Shown here: positions 4,404 through 52,294 of the stretch, piece by piece
Position numbering within the stretch: position 1 is the first letter of the stretch
Layout of the letters: the number at the start of each line of letters is the position of its first letter
The notes under the pieces: generated by a model
What the model was told of the DNA's origin: nothing
Databases searched by the model: none
The model's input: only the letters and a program-made list of their open reading frames with translations
Assembly (NCBI GenBank): GCA_964510885.1
Contig: CAZEDL010000006.1
Span: forward strand, 12,531 to 76,530
Direction: 5' to 3'
Length of the DNA stretch: 64,000 nt
From: an uncultured Gammaproteobacteria bacterium
Lineage (GTDB): Bacteria; Patescibacteriota; Patescibacteriia; Magasanikbacterales; GWA2-37-8
Translations under genes and position numbers: made by a program

Positions 4404-4431
4404 AATTCCCGCTCTCAGGCGGGAATTTTTA
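4404..4431. terminator. Bidirectional intrinsic terminator (AATTCCCGC-loop-GCGGGAATT followed by a T run) between asnS and a convergent gene
   Basis: Seen in sequence. Confidence 0.6.
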
Positions 4432-6055: not shown

Positions 6056-7843
6056 TTACTTGGCCAGCTCGGCCTCCCGCAGGATGCGCTCAACCTGGCC
6101 ATTGGTGATGGGGTGGTAGCCGGCCTTAACCTGTTCAAAGACGCGCCGCGCCCAGGCCAGGCCCTGGACGGTCTTCGCCTTGGCCCGCATCAGCGGGAGG
6201 ACGTACTTCATCCGGCCGCCCTCGACCAGGAAGCGCTCGATCTGGTCGTCCACCGCCGTGTAGCCGGACTCGACGGCGAGGAGGAGGAACGCCCACTTGA
6301 TCTCGGCGAAGCGGTTGGTGCTGAGGTTGAACTCGATGTCGAGCTTGGCGACGAACTCCGGGGTGGCCGGGCGCGGTAGCAGTTCCAGGTAAAGCGTCCA
6401 CTGCGGGTCGGACCAGGCCTGGCCGACCTCGCGGGGCGGGATGATGGACTGCTCAGCGTACCGCGCGACGTCGTCGATGAGCAACGACTCGATCTTCGGA
6501 GCGTTCTCGGGCCAGCCTGGCTCGTAGACGTAGCGCCAGGCCTGGACCTGCTCCAGCGCACCCGGCAACTCGGAGGCCACGAAGTCGAGGAAGGTGGCGG
6601 TATCGATGGCCGTGAAGCGGAACCGGGCGATGTAGGCCCGGATGAACCGGTCGAAGCGCTCACGCCCGACCCTCTCCTCGATGGCCCGGATGAACATCGC
6701 CCCCTCGAAGTACGGCACCCGCGAGAAGATGTCGTCGGGGTCGACGGCGCAGGAGATGTGGGTGGACAGGGCGGTAAGCTCGGGAGTGCCGGTCGTGATG
6801 AAGTGGTGGCAGTCCCGGCTGAACTCTCGGCCACGCAGGGCCATCTGCAGGAGGGCCGCGTCGCGGCCATGGAGCGCCTCGTAGATGCGCCACTCGATGT
6901 AGGTCGTCCAGCCCTCGTTGAGCCAGAACGACCGCCAGTCGGCATTGCCGATCAAGTTGCCGGTCCAGGAGTGGGCCAGCTCGTGGCCGACGACAGCCGC
7001 GCCGCCGGGGATTAGGGTGGGTGTCAGGAAGGTGAGCCGCGGGTTCTCCATGCCCCCGTAGGGGAAGGAGGGCGGCAGGATCAACAGGTCGAACCGCTCC
7101 CAGTCGTACGGGCCGAAGAGCCCCTCGGCCACGTCCATCATCTGTCCGACCTGGGCGAACTCAGCAGCCGCCGCGTCGACCAGCTCCACCTCGGACCAGA
7201 CGCGGCAGCGATCGGTGATGTCGCGCGACACCAGGTCGCCGACGGCGATGGCCATGAGGTAGGCCGGGATGCGCTGGGGCATACGGTATCGCTCGATCGC
7301 GAGCTCGCCCTGCTCCTCGCGGCCGAGGTGGTTGGCCGCCATGAGCGCGCGCAGCGCCTTTGGCACCGTGATCTCCGCCGAGTAGCTGAAGCGGATATTG
7401 GGGGTGTTCTGGCACGGCACCAGGCTCGGTGCGTGCAGGGCCTGGAATTGGGTGAACAGGTATGGGTGCCGCTTGCCCTTGGTCTGCTCAGCGCTGAGCC
7501 ACTGGATGCCGCTGGCCTCAGGCGAGGTGTGGTAGCGGATATTGACCCGGGGCTCGTCCTCGGGGACCATGACGTTCAGCCGCTGGCCTAGGACCGGCTT
7601 CGACTCGTGGAGCTGGAACTCCAGGGTCTGACCGGAGTTGTCGGTGACGGCTTCGATGGTGAGGTCCCGGACGTCGAGATCGACCGTGCCGCCCTGGCCG
7701 AAGTCGATAGTGGCGGTGCAGCTAATCGTCCTGGTGGCGAAGTTGATCTGGGCCTGCAGGTGCAGGTGGGTCATCGTCGGCTGACCCGGGCCGTAGTATG
7801 AATGCGGATCGCGCTTGATTGCTGGCATCTGCATCATGCACAT
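6056..7843 (-). CDS. M1-family zinc aminopeptidase (leukotriene A4 hydrolase/aminopeptidase N-like); high-GC gene
   Basis: HELAHSWTGNL...WLNEGWTTY is the HEXXH-(18)-E gluzincin M1 signature. GC is about 66% against about 50% in flanking DNA. The likely start is MCMMQM at 7843, preceded by GGAGAG; the ORF track extends to 7912. Confidence 0.85.
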   Translation of the reverse strand: MCMMQMPAIKRDPHSYYGPGQPTMTHLHLQAQINFATRTISCTATIDFGQGGTVDLDVRDLTIEAVTDNSGQTLEFQLHESKPVLGQRLNVMVPEDEPRVNIRYHTSPEASGIQWLSAEQTKGKRHPYLFTQFQALHAPSLVPCQNTPNIRFSYSAEITVPKALRALMAANHLGREEQGELAIERYRMPQRIPAYLMAIAVGDLVSRDITDRCRVWSEVELVDAAAAEFAQVGQMMDVAEGLFGPYDWERFDLLILPPSFPYGGMENPRLTFLTPTLIPGGAAVVGHELAHSWTGNLIGNADWRSFWLNEGWTTYIEWRIYEALHGRDAALLQMALRGREFSRDCHHFITTGTPELTALSTHISCAVDPDDIFSRVPYFEGAMFIRAIEERVGRERFDRFIRAYIARFRFTAIDTATFLDFVASELPGALEQVQAWRYVYEPGWPENAPKIESLLIDDVARYAEQSIIPPREVGQAWSDPQWTLYLELLPRPATPEFVAKLDIEFNLSTNRFAEIKWAFLLLAVESGYTAVDDQIERFLVEGGRMKYVLPLMRAKAKTVQGLAWARRVFEQVKAGYHPITNGQVERILREAELAK

Positions 7844-8054
7844 GTTGCTCTCCAATGCTGCCCCAACAGCAAGTTGATACGGGGGTGAGTGTGGTTGATT
7901 ATTCAACACCACTCAGCCCCGTATTCTTCAAAGAACAACATGATATATAAGCACTTGTCGCACTGAATGTCAATCGAGAGATAGTCAATATCAGCAATTA
8001 AATTTTCTAAATAAATAGAGGATTATTTTTTGTCACCCTTGATTCGATTCTTAC

Positions 8055-12078: not shown

Positions 12079-12285
12079 ATGCCGTTCGCCACCGCTTCCC
12101 AGGAAGATCATCCTGCCACCAGCCCGATCCACCCTGCTGCCCAGGAGTCCGCCGATGCGCCCGCGGACCCTCTGTTCATCGATGAGGTCCACGAGGTCTT
12201 CAACATCCCGCGTCGGCCCTCTGGGCCTGAGGTGGGGGGTGACCCCGTGTACAAGAGGCCACGCGGAACCTACTTCGTGTCGTAA
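12079..12285 (+). CDS. Hypothetical 68-aa protein in a high-GC segment, with a strong Shine-Dalgarno
   Basis: AAGGAG lies 6 nt before the ATG. GC is about 62% with GC3 bias. No recognisable domain. This could instead be part of a structured RNA. Confidence 0.3.
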   Translation: MPFATASQEDHPATSPIHPAAQESADAPADPLFIDEVHEVFNIPRRPSGPEVGGDPVYKRPRGTYFVS

Positions 12286-12320
12286 TCATCGGCACGCAGT
12301 TCACCGCCGGACGCTCGAGC

Positions 12321-12390
12321 GCTCCGGTCTTCCGGTGTTACCGGAACTGATGAGTCCTTTCAGAATAAGATCAGGACGAAACCAAATTCG
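12321..12390 (+). ncRNA. Candidate type III hammerhead ribozyme
   Basis: GUC cleavage triplet at 12327-12329; stem I hairpin UUCCGGU-GUU-ACCGGAA at 12330-12346; CUGAUGA at 12347-12353; stem II GUCCU...AGGAC at 12354-12377; GAA at 12378-12380; then AC starting stem III. All 11 conserved core nucleotides are in canonical positions. Stem III is only about 3 bp (A-U, C-G, C-G). Confidence 0.6.
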
Positions 12391-12931: not shown

Positions 12932-12960
12932 TTGACAAAATCCTCAAACTGTGCTATACT
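12932..12960 (+). promoter_or_regulatory. Near-consensus sigma70 promoter TTGACA-17-TGcTATACT (extended -10)
   Basis: TTGACA at 12932-12937, TATACT at 12955-12960, TG at -15/-14. Confidence 0.6.
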
Positions 12961-12965
12961 ACCAT

Positions 12966-13056
12966 TTGTGATACAAAGAAAACCTTAGCGCCAACGTATA
13001 ACCCCACTAGTAATAGCGGGGTTATATCGTTTTAAAAGGTATAGATGGCCAAATAG
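12966..13056 (+). ncRNA. Candidate small RNA 1 (about 90 nt), promoter-to-terminator unit
   Basis: It follows the promoter at 12932-12960. It contains the hairpin AACCCC-12nt-GGGGTT (13001-13024) and ends at GGCC-AAATA-GGCC followed by TTTTTT (13037-13056). No plausible ORF and no downstream plus-strand gene. Confidence 0.4.
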
Positions 13057-13082
13057 GCCGTTTTTTGTTTAAGCGTGGTCAA

Positions 13083-13131
13083 TAAACCTCTGGATTCCCG
13101 TTAGAGTTTACCTCCAGCGTAGGCGGGGCGG
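13083..13131 (-). repeat. Palindromic repeat family A, copy 1 (GGATTCCCG...CGGGAATGACA)
   Basis: Its reverse complement (GTCATTCCCGCCCCGCCTACGCTGGAGGTAAACTCTAACGGGAATCC) is near-identical to 52126-52173. Confidence 0.7.
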
Positions 13132-13179
13132 GAATGACACTAAAAAATAGTATTCACCAAGCTTTTTTTCTTTAAACCC

Positions 13180-13207
13180 TTGCATTTTTAGCGATTTTTG
13201 CTATACT
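13180..13207 (+). promoter_or_regulatory. Second near-consensus promoter TTGCAT-16-TGcTATACT
   Basis: TTGCAT at 13180-13185, TATACT at 13202-13207, extended -10 TG. Confidence 0.55.
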
Positions 13208-13212
13208 GCGCG

Positions 13213-13306
13213 CGTAGGCCTCAATCGGGCCTTTGTATCACCTTTGGCATCAAGGCATACCCTTTGAGCCTACATTAAAAACATCCCGTGGCGGGATGTT
13301 TTTTGA
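13213..13306 (+). ncRNA. Candidate small RNA 2 (about 93 nt)
   Basis: It starts after the promoter at 13180-13207. An 8-bp closing stem GUAGGCUC...GAGCCUAC encloses a CCUUUG-repeat region. It ends at the terminator AACATCCCG-tg-GCGGGATGTT followed by TTTTTT (13280-13306), which also serves the convergent gene at 13321. Confidence 0.4.
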
Positions 13307-13320
13307 TTCTAAAGTGGGTG

Positions 13321-13797
13321 TTAGTTAAGCTTCTCTCTAACCGTCTCTCCCAATTCTTTTAACCAATTCAGCACCGATTTATAGTAAGCAATATTCAGGA
13401 GTAATAACGTAATCACCACAATCGCATCATAGCTTTGCCGCACCCAGTACCCATCTTCCAGCCGGACCCACATCCCAAACTCATCAAACGTCAGGCCAAG
13501 CCCAATGCCATAGATAAACGTCAGCCAGCGAAAGCTACGCGATCCAAGTTCCGGCCGCCGCATAATAAAATAAAATCCGACCAGTACCAGAATTACTACC
13601 CCATAGGTAAAATGGTGGATGTGCACCCCGCGGATGGTCAAGAAAAAATTCGGTACCAAGTTATCAAGCACGAGGTATACGAACATGCGCGAGATAAAAA
13701 AGGTCACCAAAAAAGAAAAGGCAATAATGCCAATCAGGCGGCGATTACTGGGGGTATTGTATTCTTTGAGTTCCATGTTTTTTACAATAATTGTCAT
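13321..13797 (-). CDS. Hypothetical integral membrane protein (4 predicted TM helices)
   Basis: ORF with hydrophobic segments; no recognised motif. Confidence 0.5.
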   Translation of the reverse strand: MTIIVKNMELKEYNTPSNRRLIGIIAFSFLVTFFISRMFVYLVLDNLVPNFFLTIRGVHIHHFTYGVVILVLVGFYFIMRRPELGSRSFRWLTFIYGIGLGLTFDEFGMWVRLEDGYWVRQSYDAIVVITLLLLNIAYYKSVLNWLKELGETVREKLN

Positions 13798-13825
13798 CTC
13801 CGTGTAGGCGAAAACTACACTCGAC

Positions 13826-13916
13826 TGTCATCCTGAGCGTTAGCGAAGGATCCCTTAACGCTAACTTCATCGATGCTTTTGATTTTAAGCGATTCTTCGT
13901 TTCACTCAGAATGACA
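13826..13916. repeat. MITE-like repeat family B, copy 1 (about 91 bp; TIRs TGTCATCCTGAG...CTCAGAATGACA)
   Basis: The left 35 bp is near-identical to 52203-52237, and the terminal inverted repeats match. Confidence 0.7.
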
Positions 13917-13937
13917 AGTTGATTGCGATGTGTGACT

Positions 13938-13964
13938 GGATTCCCGCTTTCGCGGGAATGACAA
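13938..13964. repeat. Repeat family A, short copy (GGATTCCCGC-tttc-GCGGGAATGACA)
   Basis: It shares the GGATTCCCGC/GCGGGAAT palindrome. Confidence 0.55.
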
Positions 13965-50779: not shown

Positions 50780-50820
50780 GGTTCCCGCTCCGCCAGCTGG
50801 CGGATGCGGCGGGGGAATCA
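50780..50820. repeat. Repeat family A-like palindromic element (GGTTCCCGC...GCGGGGGAATCA) inside a cluster of GC-rich hairpins
   Basis: It has the same architecture as 13083-13131 and 52126-52173. Confidence 0.5.
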
Positions 50821-51122: not shown

Positions 51123-51947
51123 TTACCACCATGTAATATTGACATGACTCCAGGCCTCCCACCAACGGCTCCAGTTCCATTTCCAGGGCCAACCGTAGGT
51201 GGCCAGCCGCTTCCACCAGGGTGGCAGATGTGTGGTGCCGAAGAGTCGGTCAGCGATAGCCAAGCGACTGGTGATTTCGAGCCACATGCTCGGGCCACCC
51301 TTCATCGAGAAGCCGAACTGGCGGCCATAGCCATGGTGCAATCCATGGTGCGGGCGACAGCCAGCAATCAGCCAGCCATAAGCCCCGGTCGGCTGCCATT
51401 CGGTGTGGAGGGTAAAGTGCACCACATCGATCCACCAGGCTTTGCCGATGGCGTACGTAATGGCCGCTAGCGCCACCCGCGGGCTCAAGAACCAAAGCCA
51501 CCCGAATACCGCCCAGTCAGCGAGGACAGCTGCTGGCATTGAGCGGAGCGGGAAGAAGAGCTCGGACAGATCGCTCGGGTTCGCATGGTGCGCCCCGTGG
51601 CTCCGGCGTGGGCCACGGGGTAAGATTAGGCTCGTCCATTTCAGCACACCGCGCGGCACATGCTGCACATTGCCATGGATGAACCATTCAAGAGAGAGCT
51701 TGATGAACAGAATCAGGCCGATCGCGATGAGGGCGAGCACCCAGTGATGCGGAGTGCTGGTGAAGCGCGGTACGCGAAAAAAGGCGGCAAGATGGGTGAG
51801 GAATAGCAGGGCCAGGAACCACGGGGTCGGCTCCCTGATGATAATGGCGAGCGCCTTCTCAAAGGTGTCAGTGTTCGGAATAAAAAAGCTCGGGCTCGGC
51901 TTGGCGTTAGTCGGAGTCATGGCAAACCTCCTTGCCTTTTTTGGCAT
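51123..51947 (-). CDS. Fatty acid hydroxylase superfamily membrane protein (sterol desaturase-like; histidine boxes)
   Basis: His clusters HGAHH and HHGLHH in a multi-TM context. GC is about 57%, above the background. Confidence 0.55.
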   Translation of the reverse strand: MPKKARRFAMTPTNAKPSPSFFIPNTDTFEKALAIIIREPTPWFLALLFLTHLAAFFRVPRFTSTPHHWVLALIAIGLILFIKLSLEWFIHGNVQHVPRGVLKWTSLILPRGPRRSHGAHHANPSDLSELFFPLRSMPAAVLADWAVFGWLWFLSPRVALAAITYAIGKAWWIDVVHFTLHTEWQPTGAYGWLIAGCRPHHGLHHGYGRQFGFSMKGGPSMWLEITSRLAIADRLFGTTHLPPWWKRLATYGWPWKWNWSRWWEAWSHVNITWW

Positions 51948-52125
51948 AAAGCCGTTGTTAAAAATAGGCGAACAGATGTTCCTGTATTTTGAACAGCGGC
52001 CGTGCCGATGTAAAAGAACTGATTAATTTTAAAAAGATAAAGATAGTTCTAACCTAGCATAGCCGCTTAAGACTGTCTATAAATTAGTAGTCGAGCTTGA
52101 TGAATAGTCACCAAAAACTCGTTTT

Positions 52126-52173
52126 GTCATTCCCACCCCCGCTTACGCTGGGGGTAAACTCCGGCGGGAATCC
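52126..52173 (+). repeat. Palindromic repeat family A, copy 2
   Basis: GTCATTCCCACCCCCGCTTACGCTGGGGGTAAACTCCGGCGGGAATCC, near-identical to the reverse complement of 13083-13131. Confidence 0.7.
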
Positions 52174-52202
52174 AGTCACGCGTCATCGTACTAGGCTCAA
52201 CC

Positions 52203-52294
52203 TGTCATTCTGAGCGTTAGCGAAGAATCCCTTAAAGTTAAATTTTGGTATTAGTTTTAGCGTCAAGGGATCTTTCACTGCGTTCAGGATGACA
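52203..52294. repeat. MITE-like repeat family B, copy 2 (TIRs TGTCATTCTGAG...TCAGGATGACA)
   Basis: The left arm is near-identical to 13826-13860. The internal inverted repeats are GTCATTCTGAGCGTTAGCGAAGAATCCC and GGGATCTTTCACTGCGTTCAGGATGAC. Confidence 0.7.

Follow-up and report, generated by a model that had tools for sequence, protein, structure and literature searches.

Repetitive extragenic palindromic (REP) elements of the CGTC-tagged class, as defined by Di Nocera et al. 2013 (PMC3733652), carry a CGTC or TGTC head that is left unpaired, followed by an 8-9-bp stem starting with AT, a loop that, with exceptions, measures 4-5 nt, and a CCA tail. They are divided into the families CGTC-1 to CGTC-4, and CGTC-1 includes the Neisseria repeat dRS3. 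The Neisseria Transformation Sequence (NTS), defined as CGTCATTCCCGCGMAVGCGGGAATCYRG by Chenal et al. 2025 (PMC11893778), is recognized by SsnA, a 94-aa single-domain GIY-YIG protein that binds the NTS hairpin only as single-stranded DNA (ssDNA), on one strand, and cuts just upstream of it. Mutagenesis identified the three nucleotides before the stem as critical for cleavage and the C after the stem as critical for binding, cleavage survives both removal and extension of the loop, and the RNA form of the hairpin is not bound by Ssn (PMC11893778). Across phyla, Ssn-related motifs (SRM) typically flank the ssnA genes, and in Neisseria the transformation with DNA carrying the NTS is reduced by SsnA. 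The first description of Ssn nucleases and of the hairpins they recognize dates from 2025, with tests in four proteobacteria (PMC11893778). Here we describe hairpin repeats in a 64-kb stretch of DNA from a Patescibacterium (contig CAZEDL010000006.1, positions 12,531 to 76,530; hereafter the window). These repeats probably belong to a superfamily of TGTC- or CGTC-headed hairpins that comprises the CGTC-tagged REPs, the NTS, which is a longer, oriented subset of dRS3, and SRM. From their structure, distribution and gene context we consider it likely that they are REP-like elements of the Ssn system which act at the level of ssDNA and are located at the borders of variable gene cassettes.

Seven hairpin units in the window

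Direct inspection of the sequence, together with the list of open reading frames (ORFs), gave a total of seven hairpin units in the window, every one of which is intergenic and begins with TGTCAT. The initial annotation, made from the sequence alone, had reported two families of GC-rich palindromic repeats, A and B, which share their first bases and occur at four loci. The common start is borne out by every unit, and three of the loci hold. The fourth, an A-like form at 50780-50820 (+), has no GTCA head and did not match the covariance model of the A units, which was built from copies in other genomes, even at E <= 10. It folds as an unrelated-looking hairpin with a layout roughly similar to that of the A units, and may be a decayed A copy or unrelated; we do not accept it as a member. 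In 7/7 units the TGTC head, whose 5' GTC is conserved and non-palindromic, is present and the stem is followed immediately by a C. The tail is CCAG in the A units and CCC or CGC in the B units, and the stem arms are separated by GAAA in the short A unit, by about 3-4 nt in the B units and by 28-30 nt in the long A units. The description as GC-rich fits the A units (57-63%, as compared with 49% for the window) but not the B doublets (39-42%).

The short A unit at 13936-13963 (-) is 28 nt long (TGTCATTCCCGCGAAAGCGGGAATCCAG) and matched the covariance model with 33.2 bits (E = 4e-6), confirming the short form reported for family A. It is composed of the TGTC head, an 8-bp stem ATTCCCGC/GCGGGAAT, the loop GAAA and the tail CCAG, and folds as ssDNA with -9 kcal/mol (z = -5.8). 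It matches the NTS consensus at 27/28 positions, the sole difference being the first base, which is T instead of C. It is also the one match in the window, where 0.2 were expected, to the degenerate SRM pattern HGTCWYN(0-2)YYVSBRHN(0-5)WNVSBRGN(0-2)RNCYNB. Judged by its sequence, the short unit is essentially the Neisseria NTS, and as such already known.

Two long A units of about 50 nt each were found at 13090-13139 (-) (45.5 bits, E = 2.9e-9) and at 52125-52175 (+) (55.4 bits, E = 9e-12), and are 87% complementary to each other across 39 nt; the long copies of family A thereby stand as first reported. In copy 1, an inner hairpin (P2) and a bulge TAAACTCTAA, both somewhat degenerate, are enclosed by the NTS stem. 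Copy 2 has the sequence TGTC-ATTCCCAC-CCCCGCTTACGCTGGGGG-TAAACTCCGG-CGGGAAT-CCAG and is collinear with the short unit of locus 1, from which it differs in loop content alone.

Family B is represented by two doublets with outward-facing heads. The doublet at 13826-13916 consists of units at 13826-13856 (+) and 13887-13916 (-) separated by a 30-nt spacer, and the doublet at 52203-52294 consists of units at 52203-52233 (+) and 52265-52294 (-), the latter more degenerate, separated by a 31-nt spacer. As a whole, the doublets fold as ssDNA with z = -3.75 and z = -3.99, respectively, and their four units, of about 30 nt each, have the form TGTCATYCTGAGYG-NNN-RCGAAGRATCSCTT. The two doublets had been described as nearly identical at their starts, and they are indeed 88% identical across the first 43 nt. 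The sequence TGTCATYCTGAG occurs in 4 copies in the window against 0.33 expected, and 0/100 shuffles reached 4; the occurrence of the repeats in the window is far above chance level. What had been read as the terminal inverted repeats of one B element belongs to two distinct hairpin units in inverted orientation, of which it forms the heads and 5' stems. Rather than a classical miniature inverted-repeat transposable element (MITE), family B is a pair of predicted, mutually inverted hairpins that contain tandem G·A mismatches.

A and B co-occur at 13.8-14.0 and 52.1-52.3 kb as reported: loci 1 and 2 share one collinear composite block, made up of an A unit, a TCACRCRTC spacer and a B doublet, and its two copies are 78% identical. 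The chief difference between them lies in the loop of the A unit, which is GAAA at locus 1 and a 23-nt larger insert at locus 2.

Long and B forms in other genomes

GTDB species representatives were searched with a pattern of the long form in which only GTCATTCCC, GGTAAACTC and GGGAATCC were fixed. The long form was found at at least 119 loci in many phyla, whereas a strict version of the pattern had 0 matches in contigs of GTDB representatives. Among the matches listed, the hosts within the Patescibacteria are Saccharibacteria, Wolfebacteria, Gottesmanbacteria and Berkelbacteria. The other hosts among these matches include Dehalococcoidales, Anaerolineae, Nitrospirae, Nitrospinales, Oscillatoriales cyanobacteria, Melainabacteria, Thermodesulfobacteriota and Syntrophaceae, as well as Rickettsiales, Bdellovibrionales, Omnitrophota, Ignavibacteria, Bacteroidetes, Acidobacteria, Verrucomicrobiota and Endomicrobia. 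The consensus of the long form is YGTC-ATTCCCGC-[CCCCGTA-loop-TACGGGG]-TAAACTCCRG-CGGGAAT-CCAG. Long and short forms were found together at the same loci.

The inner hairpin is supported by covariation. Its distal pairs, which were unconstrained by the pattern, are GC in 49 and CG in 12 copies at one position, UA in 36, GC in 15 and CG in 6 at another, and AU in 35, GC in 11 and CG in 5 at a third. In an alignment that was itself fitted to the covariance model, P2 had 74 double-change cells as compared with 14.6 in shuffles, and 96.9% of its cells were paired, against no more than 59% when the partners were slid. In the copies found with the search pattern, the exact bulge was prescribed by that pattern. 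In copies found with the covariance model only, the (G/A)TAAACTCC bulge is kept while the stem P1 changes in a compensatory manner, for example ATTCCTGC/GCAGGAAT and ATGCCAGC/GCTGGCAT.

B units were scanned for in IMG/VR, where they occur at at least 120 loci, and they are also present in several genomes carrying long units. Among 144 unique B units from other contigs in the matches listed, the third base of the stem pairs as T-A in 72 and as C-G in 66, and only 6 units have a mismatch there. This Y/R covariation in 138/144 units backs the hairpin AT[Y]CT-GA-GC-loop-GC-GA-AG[R]AT with a central tandem G·A, whose single units score weakly under a nearest-neighbour folding model. B variants with an inserted inner hairpin exist.

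Searches of Rfam with the window at the gathering threshold, and with the repeat regions and consensus copies at permissive E-values, gave only tRNAs and chance-level matches. The long form had no Rfam match and its sequence was not found in the literature searched; string searches of the literature with the B form gave nothing relevant. Widespread as they are, the long and G·A variants are covered neither by the published motif nor by Rfam or the searched literature.

Two other identities were considered and rejected. P2 and the bulge invited comparison with type I-E CRISPR repeats; no CRISPR-DR model matched the element, nor were there arrays. The GUC head and the CUGA...GAA of the B form suggested a hammerhead or other ribozyme, for which the conserved cores are absent; the orientation is random relative to transcription, and there was no Rfam match.

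Nested or fused units were also observed, in which a complete short hairpin lies within the loop or the inner hairpin of another unit (L040 1229-1298; L239, upstream of the gene; L024 161-213; L numbers designate the sequences compared). These nested units suggest that hairpin loops serve as sites of insertion or recombination.

Ssn-like GIY-YIG genes and the probable partner of the repeats

The short form is linked to genes for Ssn-like proteins. A consensus-like GIY-YIG query retrieved at least 8000 proteins of about 95 aa, and the genomic contexts of five were fetched, from Taylorbacteria, a Patescibacteria-group metagenome-assembled genome, Omnitrophota, one further lineage and Ignavibacteriaceae. 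Hairpins bracket the gene in 5/5 of these contexts: within 1-100 bp, TGTCATTCCCGC-GAAA-GCGGGAATCCAG precedes the gene on its own strand, and an inverted copy follows it. The short 28-mer itself lies beside the ~95-aa GIY-YIG genes of Taylorbacteria (L134), Patescibacteria (L140), Omnitrophota (L145/L148), L151/L154 and Ignavibacteriaceae (L159/L160). Among 80 further metagenome homologues, a headed perfect hairpin was present at most 160 nt upstream in 59/74 and an inverted one downstream in 50/75, and three Ssn-like homologues from IMG/VR had the same hairpin-gene-hairpin arrangement. The stems beside the metagenome genes vary by compensatory changes, for example ATTCCTGC/GCAGGAAT and ATCCCAGC/GCTGGGAT. 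As a negative control, a different small GIY-YIG clade, formed by the matches of the first query and inserted at tRNA genes, was without headed hairpins. The Ssn-like proteins matched only GIY-YIG in Pfam and no NCBIfam model, and their nearest solved structures are UPF0213 proteins (E = 5e-5).

Several further observations were made at these loci. Gene-less doublets with outward-facing heads occur near the Ssn-like gene in L134. One to three tandem half sites, each consisting of the head, the 5' stem arm and about 8 nt, precede the complete hairpin beside Ssn-like genes (L134 4888-4936; L140 4878-4942; L168, L172, L201, L209, L214, L223 and L226), on the upstream or downstream side of the gene; they may be traces left by slippage or by several rounds of cutting and rejoining. 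At L216 1860-1915, a long-type unit by an Ssn-like gene has the inner hairpin CCCGTATCAAGTACGGG as in the A-long consensus, but in the opposite orientation to head and tail and with a different bulge. The Ssn-like genes of Patescibacteria (L134 3243-9948, L140 1-4862, L151 3516-4163) lie inside clusters resembling those for conjugation or type IV secretion systems (T4SS), or beside Fic genes. The cluster genes encode PrgI, TraC-like, TraG P-loop, T4SS pilin and T4SS-DNA_transf proteins. Such surroundings are settings of ssDNA transfer. Members of the other, ~80-aa GIY-YIG clade (P0019, P0103; L120 4860-5295, L127 4900-5670) immediately follow duplicated tRNA genes, either complete or partial, in some cases in tandem, and look like a mobile cassette targeting tRNA genes.

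A mechanism can be proposed in which each unit would fold as a hairpin whenever the DNA is single-stranded, be it in transformation, conjugation, repair or replication. The hairpin would be given an orientation by its unpaired GTC head together with the C that follows the stem, and a single-domain GIY-YIG Ssn protein of about 95 aa would bind it only as ssDNA and cut a few nucleotides 5' of it, as in the characterized systems. The inverted pair of hairpins with outward-facing heads that brackets Ssn genes would form an insertion-sequence-like unit, the presumed source of the dispersed copies. In the window, the composite block is present twice beside small unannotated genes for predicted membrane proteins, one of which is absent from two relatives. 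Under the proposed mechanism this genome would encode an Ssn protein, and by analogy with Neisseria the elements may affect recombination of incoming ssDNA.

Since no Ssn gene lies beside the long or B units and no other protein family recurs there, the partner of these two forms can only be inferred. Ssn seems favoured by the retention of exactly the head and 3' C that it needs, by its tolerance of loop extensions, and by the replacement of short units by the other forms at shared loci in homologous sequence, with the reservation that the neighbours are rearranged in the L241 case. Several results weigh against this assignment. The published SRM pattern fits neither the two long units nor the four B units, and the published Ssn mechanism assigns no role to the G·A pairs of the B form or to the bulge that is invariant in the long form. 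A hidden Markov model (HMM) of the Ssn-like proteins, which gave 134 matches in a positive control, detected no GIY-YIG ORF in the window, 0 in 782 kb around long copies or 1.1 Mb around B units, and none in the sequences of the relatives L241 and L242. Conversely, 107 Ssn loci hold 0 long forms and 1 B-like unit, and only 3 Ssn-like genes were detected in the viral contigs of IMG/VR, where B units are abundant. The ~95-aa proteins themselves are candidate members of cd10448, assigned on size, single domain and flanking motif. With these results in view, it could be argued that the long form, with P2 and TAAACTCC, and the B form are not Ssn substrates, share only ancestry or a head and tail convention with the NTS, and have another partner, either a protein or a self-acting structured ssDNA or RNA. 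We regard this as rather unlikely. Near long or B units, nothing recurred except phage structural genes and spurious ORFs that run through the repeats, and the points named above in favour of Ssn speak against a different partner, as does the occurrence of these forms with short units at the same loci. A related reading, possible though doubtful, is that the long form, with a near-invariant bulge and a sequence conserved in more than a dozen phyla, is an undescribed, distinct structured ssDNA element, with the tandem-G·A B form maybe a second class, each perhaps with its own recognition logic or partner. The partner may in that case be an Ssn of a separate specificity class whose gene lies far from the sites, or a different protein altogether, and the repeated change from short to long in homologous sequence would mean that a hairpin module had inserted into the loop of another hairpin.

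The remaining explanations concern what kind of element the repeats are. The initial annotation had suggested miniature mobile elements and a cognate transposase of the IS200/IS605 or IS630-like type, and classical MITEs mobilized in trans by a conventional transposase (IS200/IS605, IS630 or RAYT) would account for the 12-nt inverted ends of the B doublet, the differing occupancy of orthologous spacers between relatives and the nested copies. We nevertheless find such mobilization highly improbable. No target-site duplications are visible at the flanks of the units, the window holds no transposase, and none recurs near the at least 119 long and 120 B loci. The GTAG head of RAYT-type REPs is absent, as is a Y1 transposase from the window, and the supposed terminal repeats belong to hairpin units that are independent of each other and are also found alone. 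This class of repeats is linked instead to the ~95-aa GIY-YIG ssDNA nuclease Ssn. What is left of the MITE idea is that the doublet with outward-facing heads has, in its predicted structure, the geometry of hairpin-ssn-hairpin minus the gene. Attachment or target sites for site-specific recombinases or integrating elements, an explanation compatible with Ssn, would fit the position of the units beside cassettes of foreign appearance or missing from relatives. Neisseria provides a precedent, where dRS3 is a target for IS110-type recombinases and filamentous prophages. The window holds no integrase, recombinase or prophage genes, and we attach little probability to this explanation.

A role in RNA, as terminators, insulators or stabilizers of transcript 3' ends, has been proposed for REPs in general, and the first two of these had been suggested for the repeats of the window. 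The units are intergenic and near gene ends, and 117/123 long copies among the matches listed lie outside long ORFs. The reported position next to terminators is correct, but the units are not terminators themselves: they have no T-run, and the predicted canonical terminators beside them are other hairpins. Using crude ORF calls for the long and B copies among the matches listed, units downstream of a gene were in sense versus antisense orientation in 39 versus 47 cases for the long form and in 56 versus 41 cases for the B form. This near-random orientation favours an element acting at the level of DNA, as ssDNA, over a strand-specific role in RNA, and together with the lack of T-tails it argues against a terminator or insulator role. 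No Rfam family matched, and Ssn does not bind the RNA form (PMC11893778). An RNA-level role is thus quite unlikely, and we retain the reading of the repeats as ssDNA-level elements of the Ssn system.

Gene context and comparison with known systems

The host is a Patescibacterium, as indicated by TopA of the window, which is 68-80% identical to proteins of Patescibacteria/Magasanikbacteria. The window encodes DprA, RecO, RadA, RecG and RuvX, of which DprA, RecO and RadA are ssDNA recombination proteins. The repeats of locus 1 bracket a gene for a 158-aa predicted membrane protein at 13321-13797 (-), which has no Pfam match. Downstream of topA, where the window has this gene together with the B doublet and the short unit, L241 and L242 lack all three and have other inserts; the gene is probably variable cargo. 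A gene for a 274-aa predicted membrane protein at 51123-51947 (-), likewise without a Pfam match, lies beside the repeats of locus 2. Its GC content of 59% is anomalous, and it is probably foreign cargo. The occupancy of orthologous spacers by units varies between the window and its relatives. The spacer between relA and topA contains the long unit 13090-13139 in the window, no hairpin in L242, and a double-headed short hairpin TGTCATTCCCGCTTTCGCGGGAATGACA in L241, where the surrounding order is rearranged. A simple insertion or inversion history of this spacer between the window and L241 was considered, found ambiguous and abandoned.

The same spacer contains two small units at 12932-13070 (+) and 13170-13305 (+), which are conserved in L241 (8385-8790) and L242 (9120-9400). 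Each has a near-consensus promoter (TTGACA-17-TATACT and TTGCAT-17-TATACT) and a terminator, and the hairpin site lies between them. They are candidate small RNAs, for which Rfam gave only a weak match to the rimP leader (E = 0.054). A headless palindrome at 4405-4426, ATTCCCGC-TCTCAG-GCGGGAAT, has the same stem as the NTS and matched the covariance model weakly (14 bits). Located between convergent genes and flanked by A6 and T5 runs, it has the appearance of a bidirectional terminator. Three GC-rich islands (57-66% as compared with 49% overall) at 6056-7912, 12079-12330 and 51123-51947 correspond to an M1 peptidase gene beside tRNA-Leu, a short patch upstream of a 142-aa ORF, and the gene for the 274-aa membrane protein; they are probably horizontally acquired.

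An Ssn-like system with the identical 28-nt site is now seen in Patescibacteria, members of the candidate phyla radiation, where the nuclease genes lie within conjugation-like clusters. These bacteria have tiny genomes and are thought to depend on DNA uptake. If Ssn cuts the long and B forms, the natural specificities of ssDNA nucleases, which are of interest for ssDNA tools, are broader than reported; if it does not, such units mark another partner. For genome annotation, the hairpins are relevant as a source of many spurious small ORFs and as markers of the borders of variable cassettes.

Among known systems, the Neisseria intergenic mosaic elements (NIMEs) and minimal mobile elements have hairpin repeats beside short variable segments and cassette-like genes between conserved genes, an arrangement which that of the window may resemble. 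The window differs in that the segments between its repeats are not Neisseria RS repeats. With REP/REPIN-RAYT systems, the Ssn-type repeats have in common that they are short, palindromic and intergenic, that they form inverted doublets, that a single-domain nuclease gene is bracketed by its own repeats, and that they act as ssDNA hairpins. They differ in the head, which is (C/T)GTC instead of GTAG, and in the enzyme, which is a GIY-YIG nuclease instead of a Y1/HUH transposase.

The initial annotation had also called the repeats REP-like, which agrees with their layout. The CGTC-tagged REPs (PMC3733652) share with the window units the unpaired TGTC head, the 8-9-bp stem starting with AT, the 4-5-nt loop (in the short unit), a CC(A) or CCA-like tail, the common occurrence as dimers and the intergenic location. 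In that study, dimers are mostly head-to-head and rarely tail-to-tail, whereas the B doublets of the window are tail-to-tail with heads outward; the long form further differs by its structured 'loop' of 28-30 nt. The stem of the B form may prove to equal that of CGTC-3 or CGTC-4.

The closest likeness is to NTS and SsnA. The host here is a Patescibacterium instead of a proteobacterium, there is no ssn gene within the window, and the long form, with its covarying inner hairpin and TAAACTCC bulge, and the tandem-G·A B form fall outside the SRM pattern and were not found beside ssn. The short unit is the same as the NTS apart from its first base, and its head and tail are oriented alike. The window units cluster beside small membrane-protein genes as the NTS clusters of Neisseria do, and the hairpin-ssn-hairpin architecture is also found in Patescibacteria and many other lineages.

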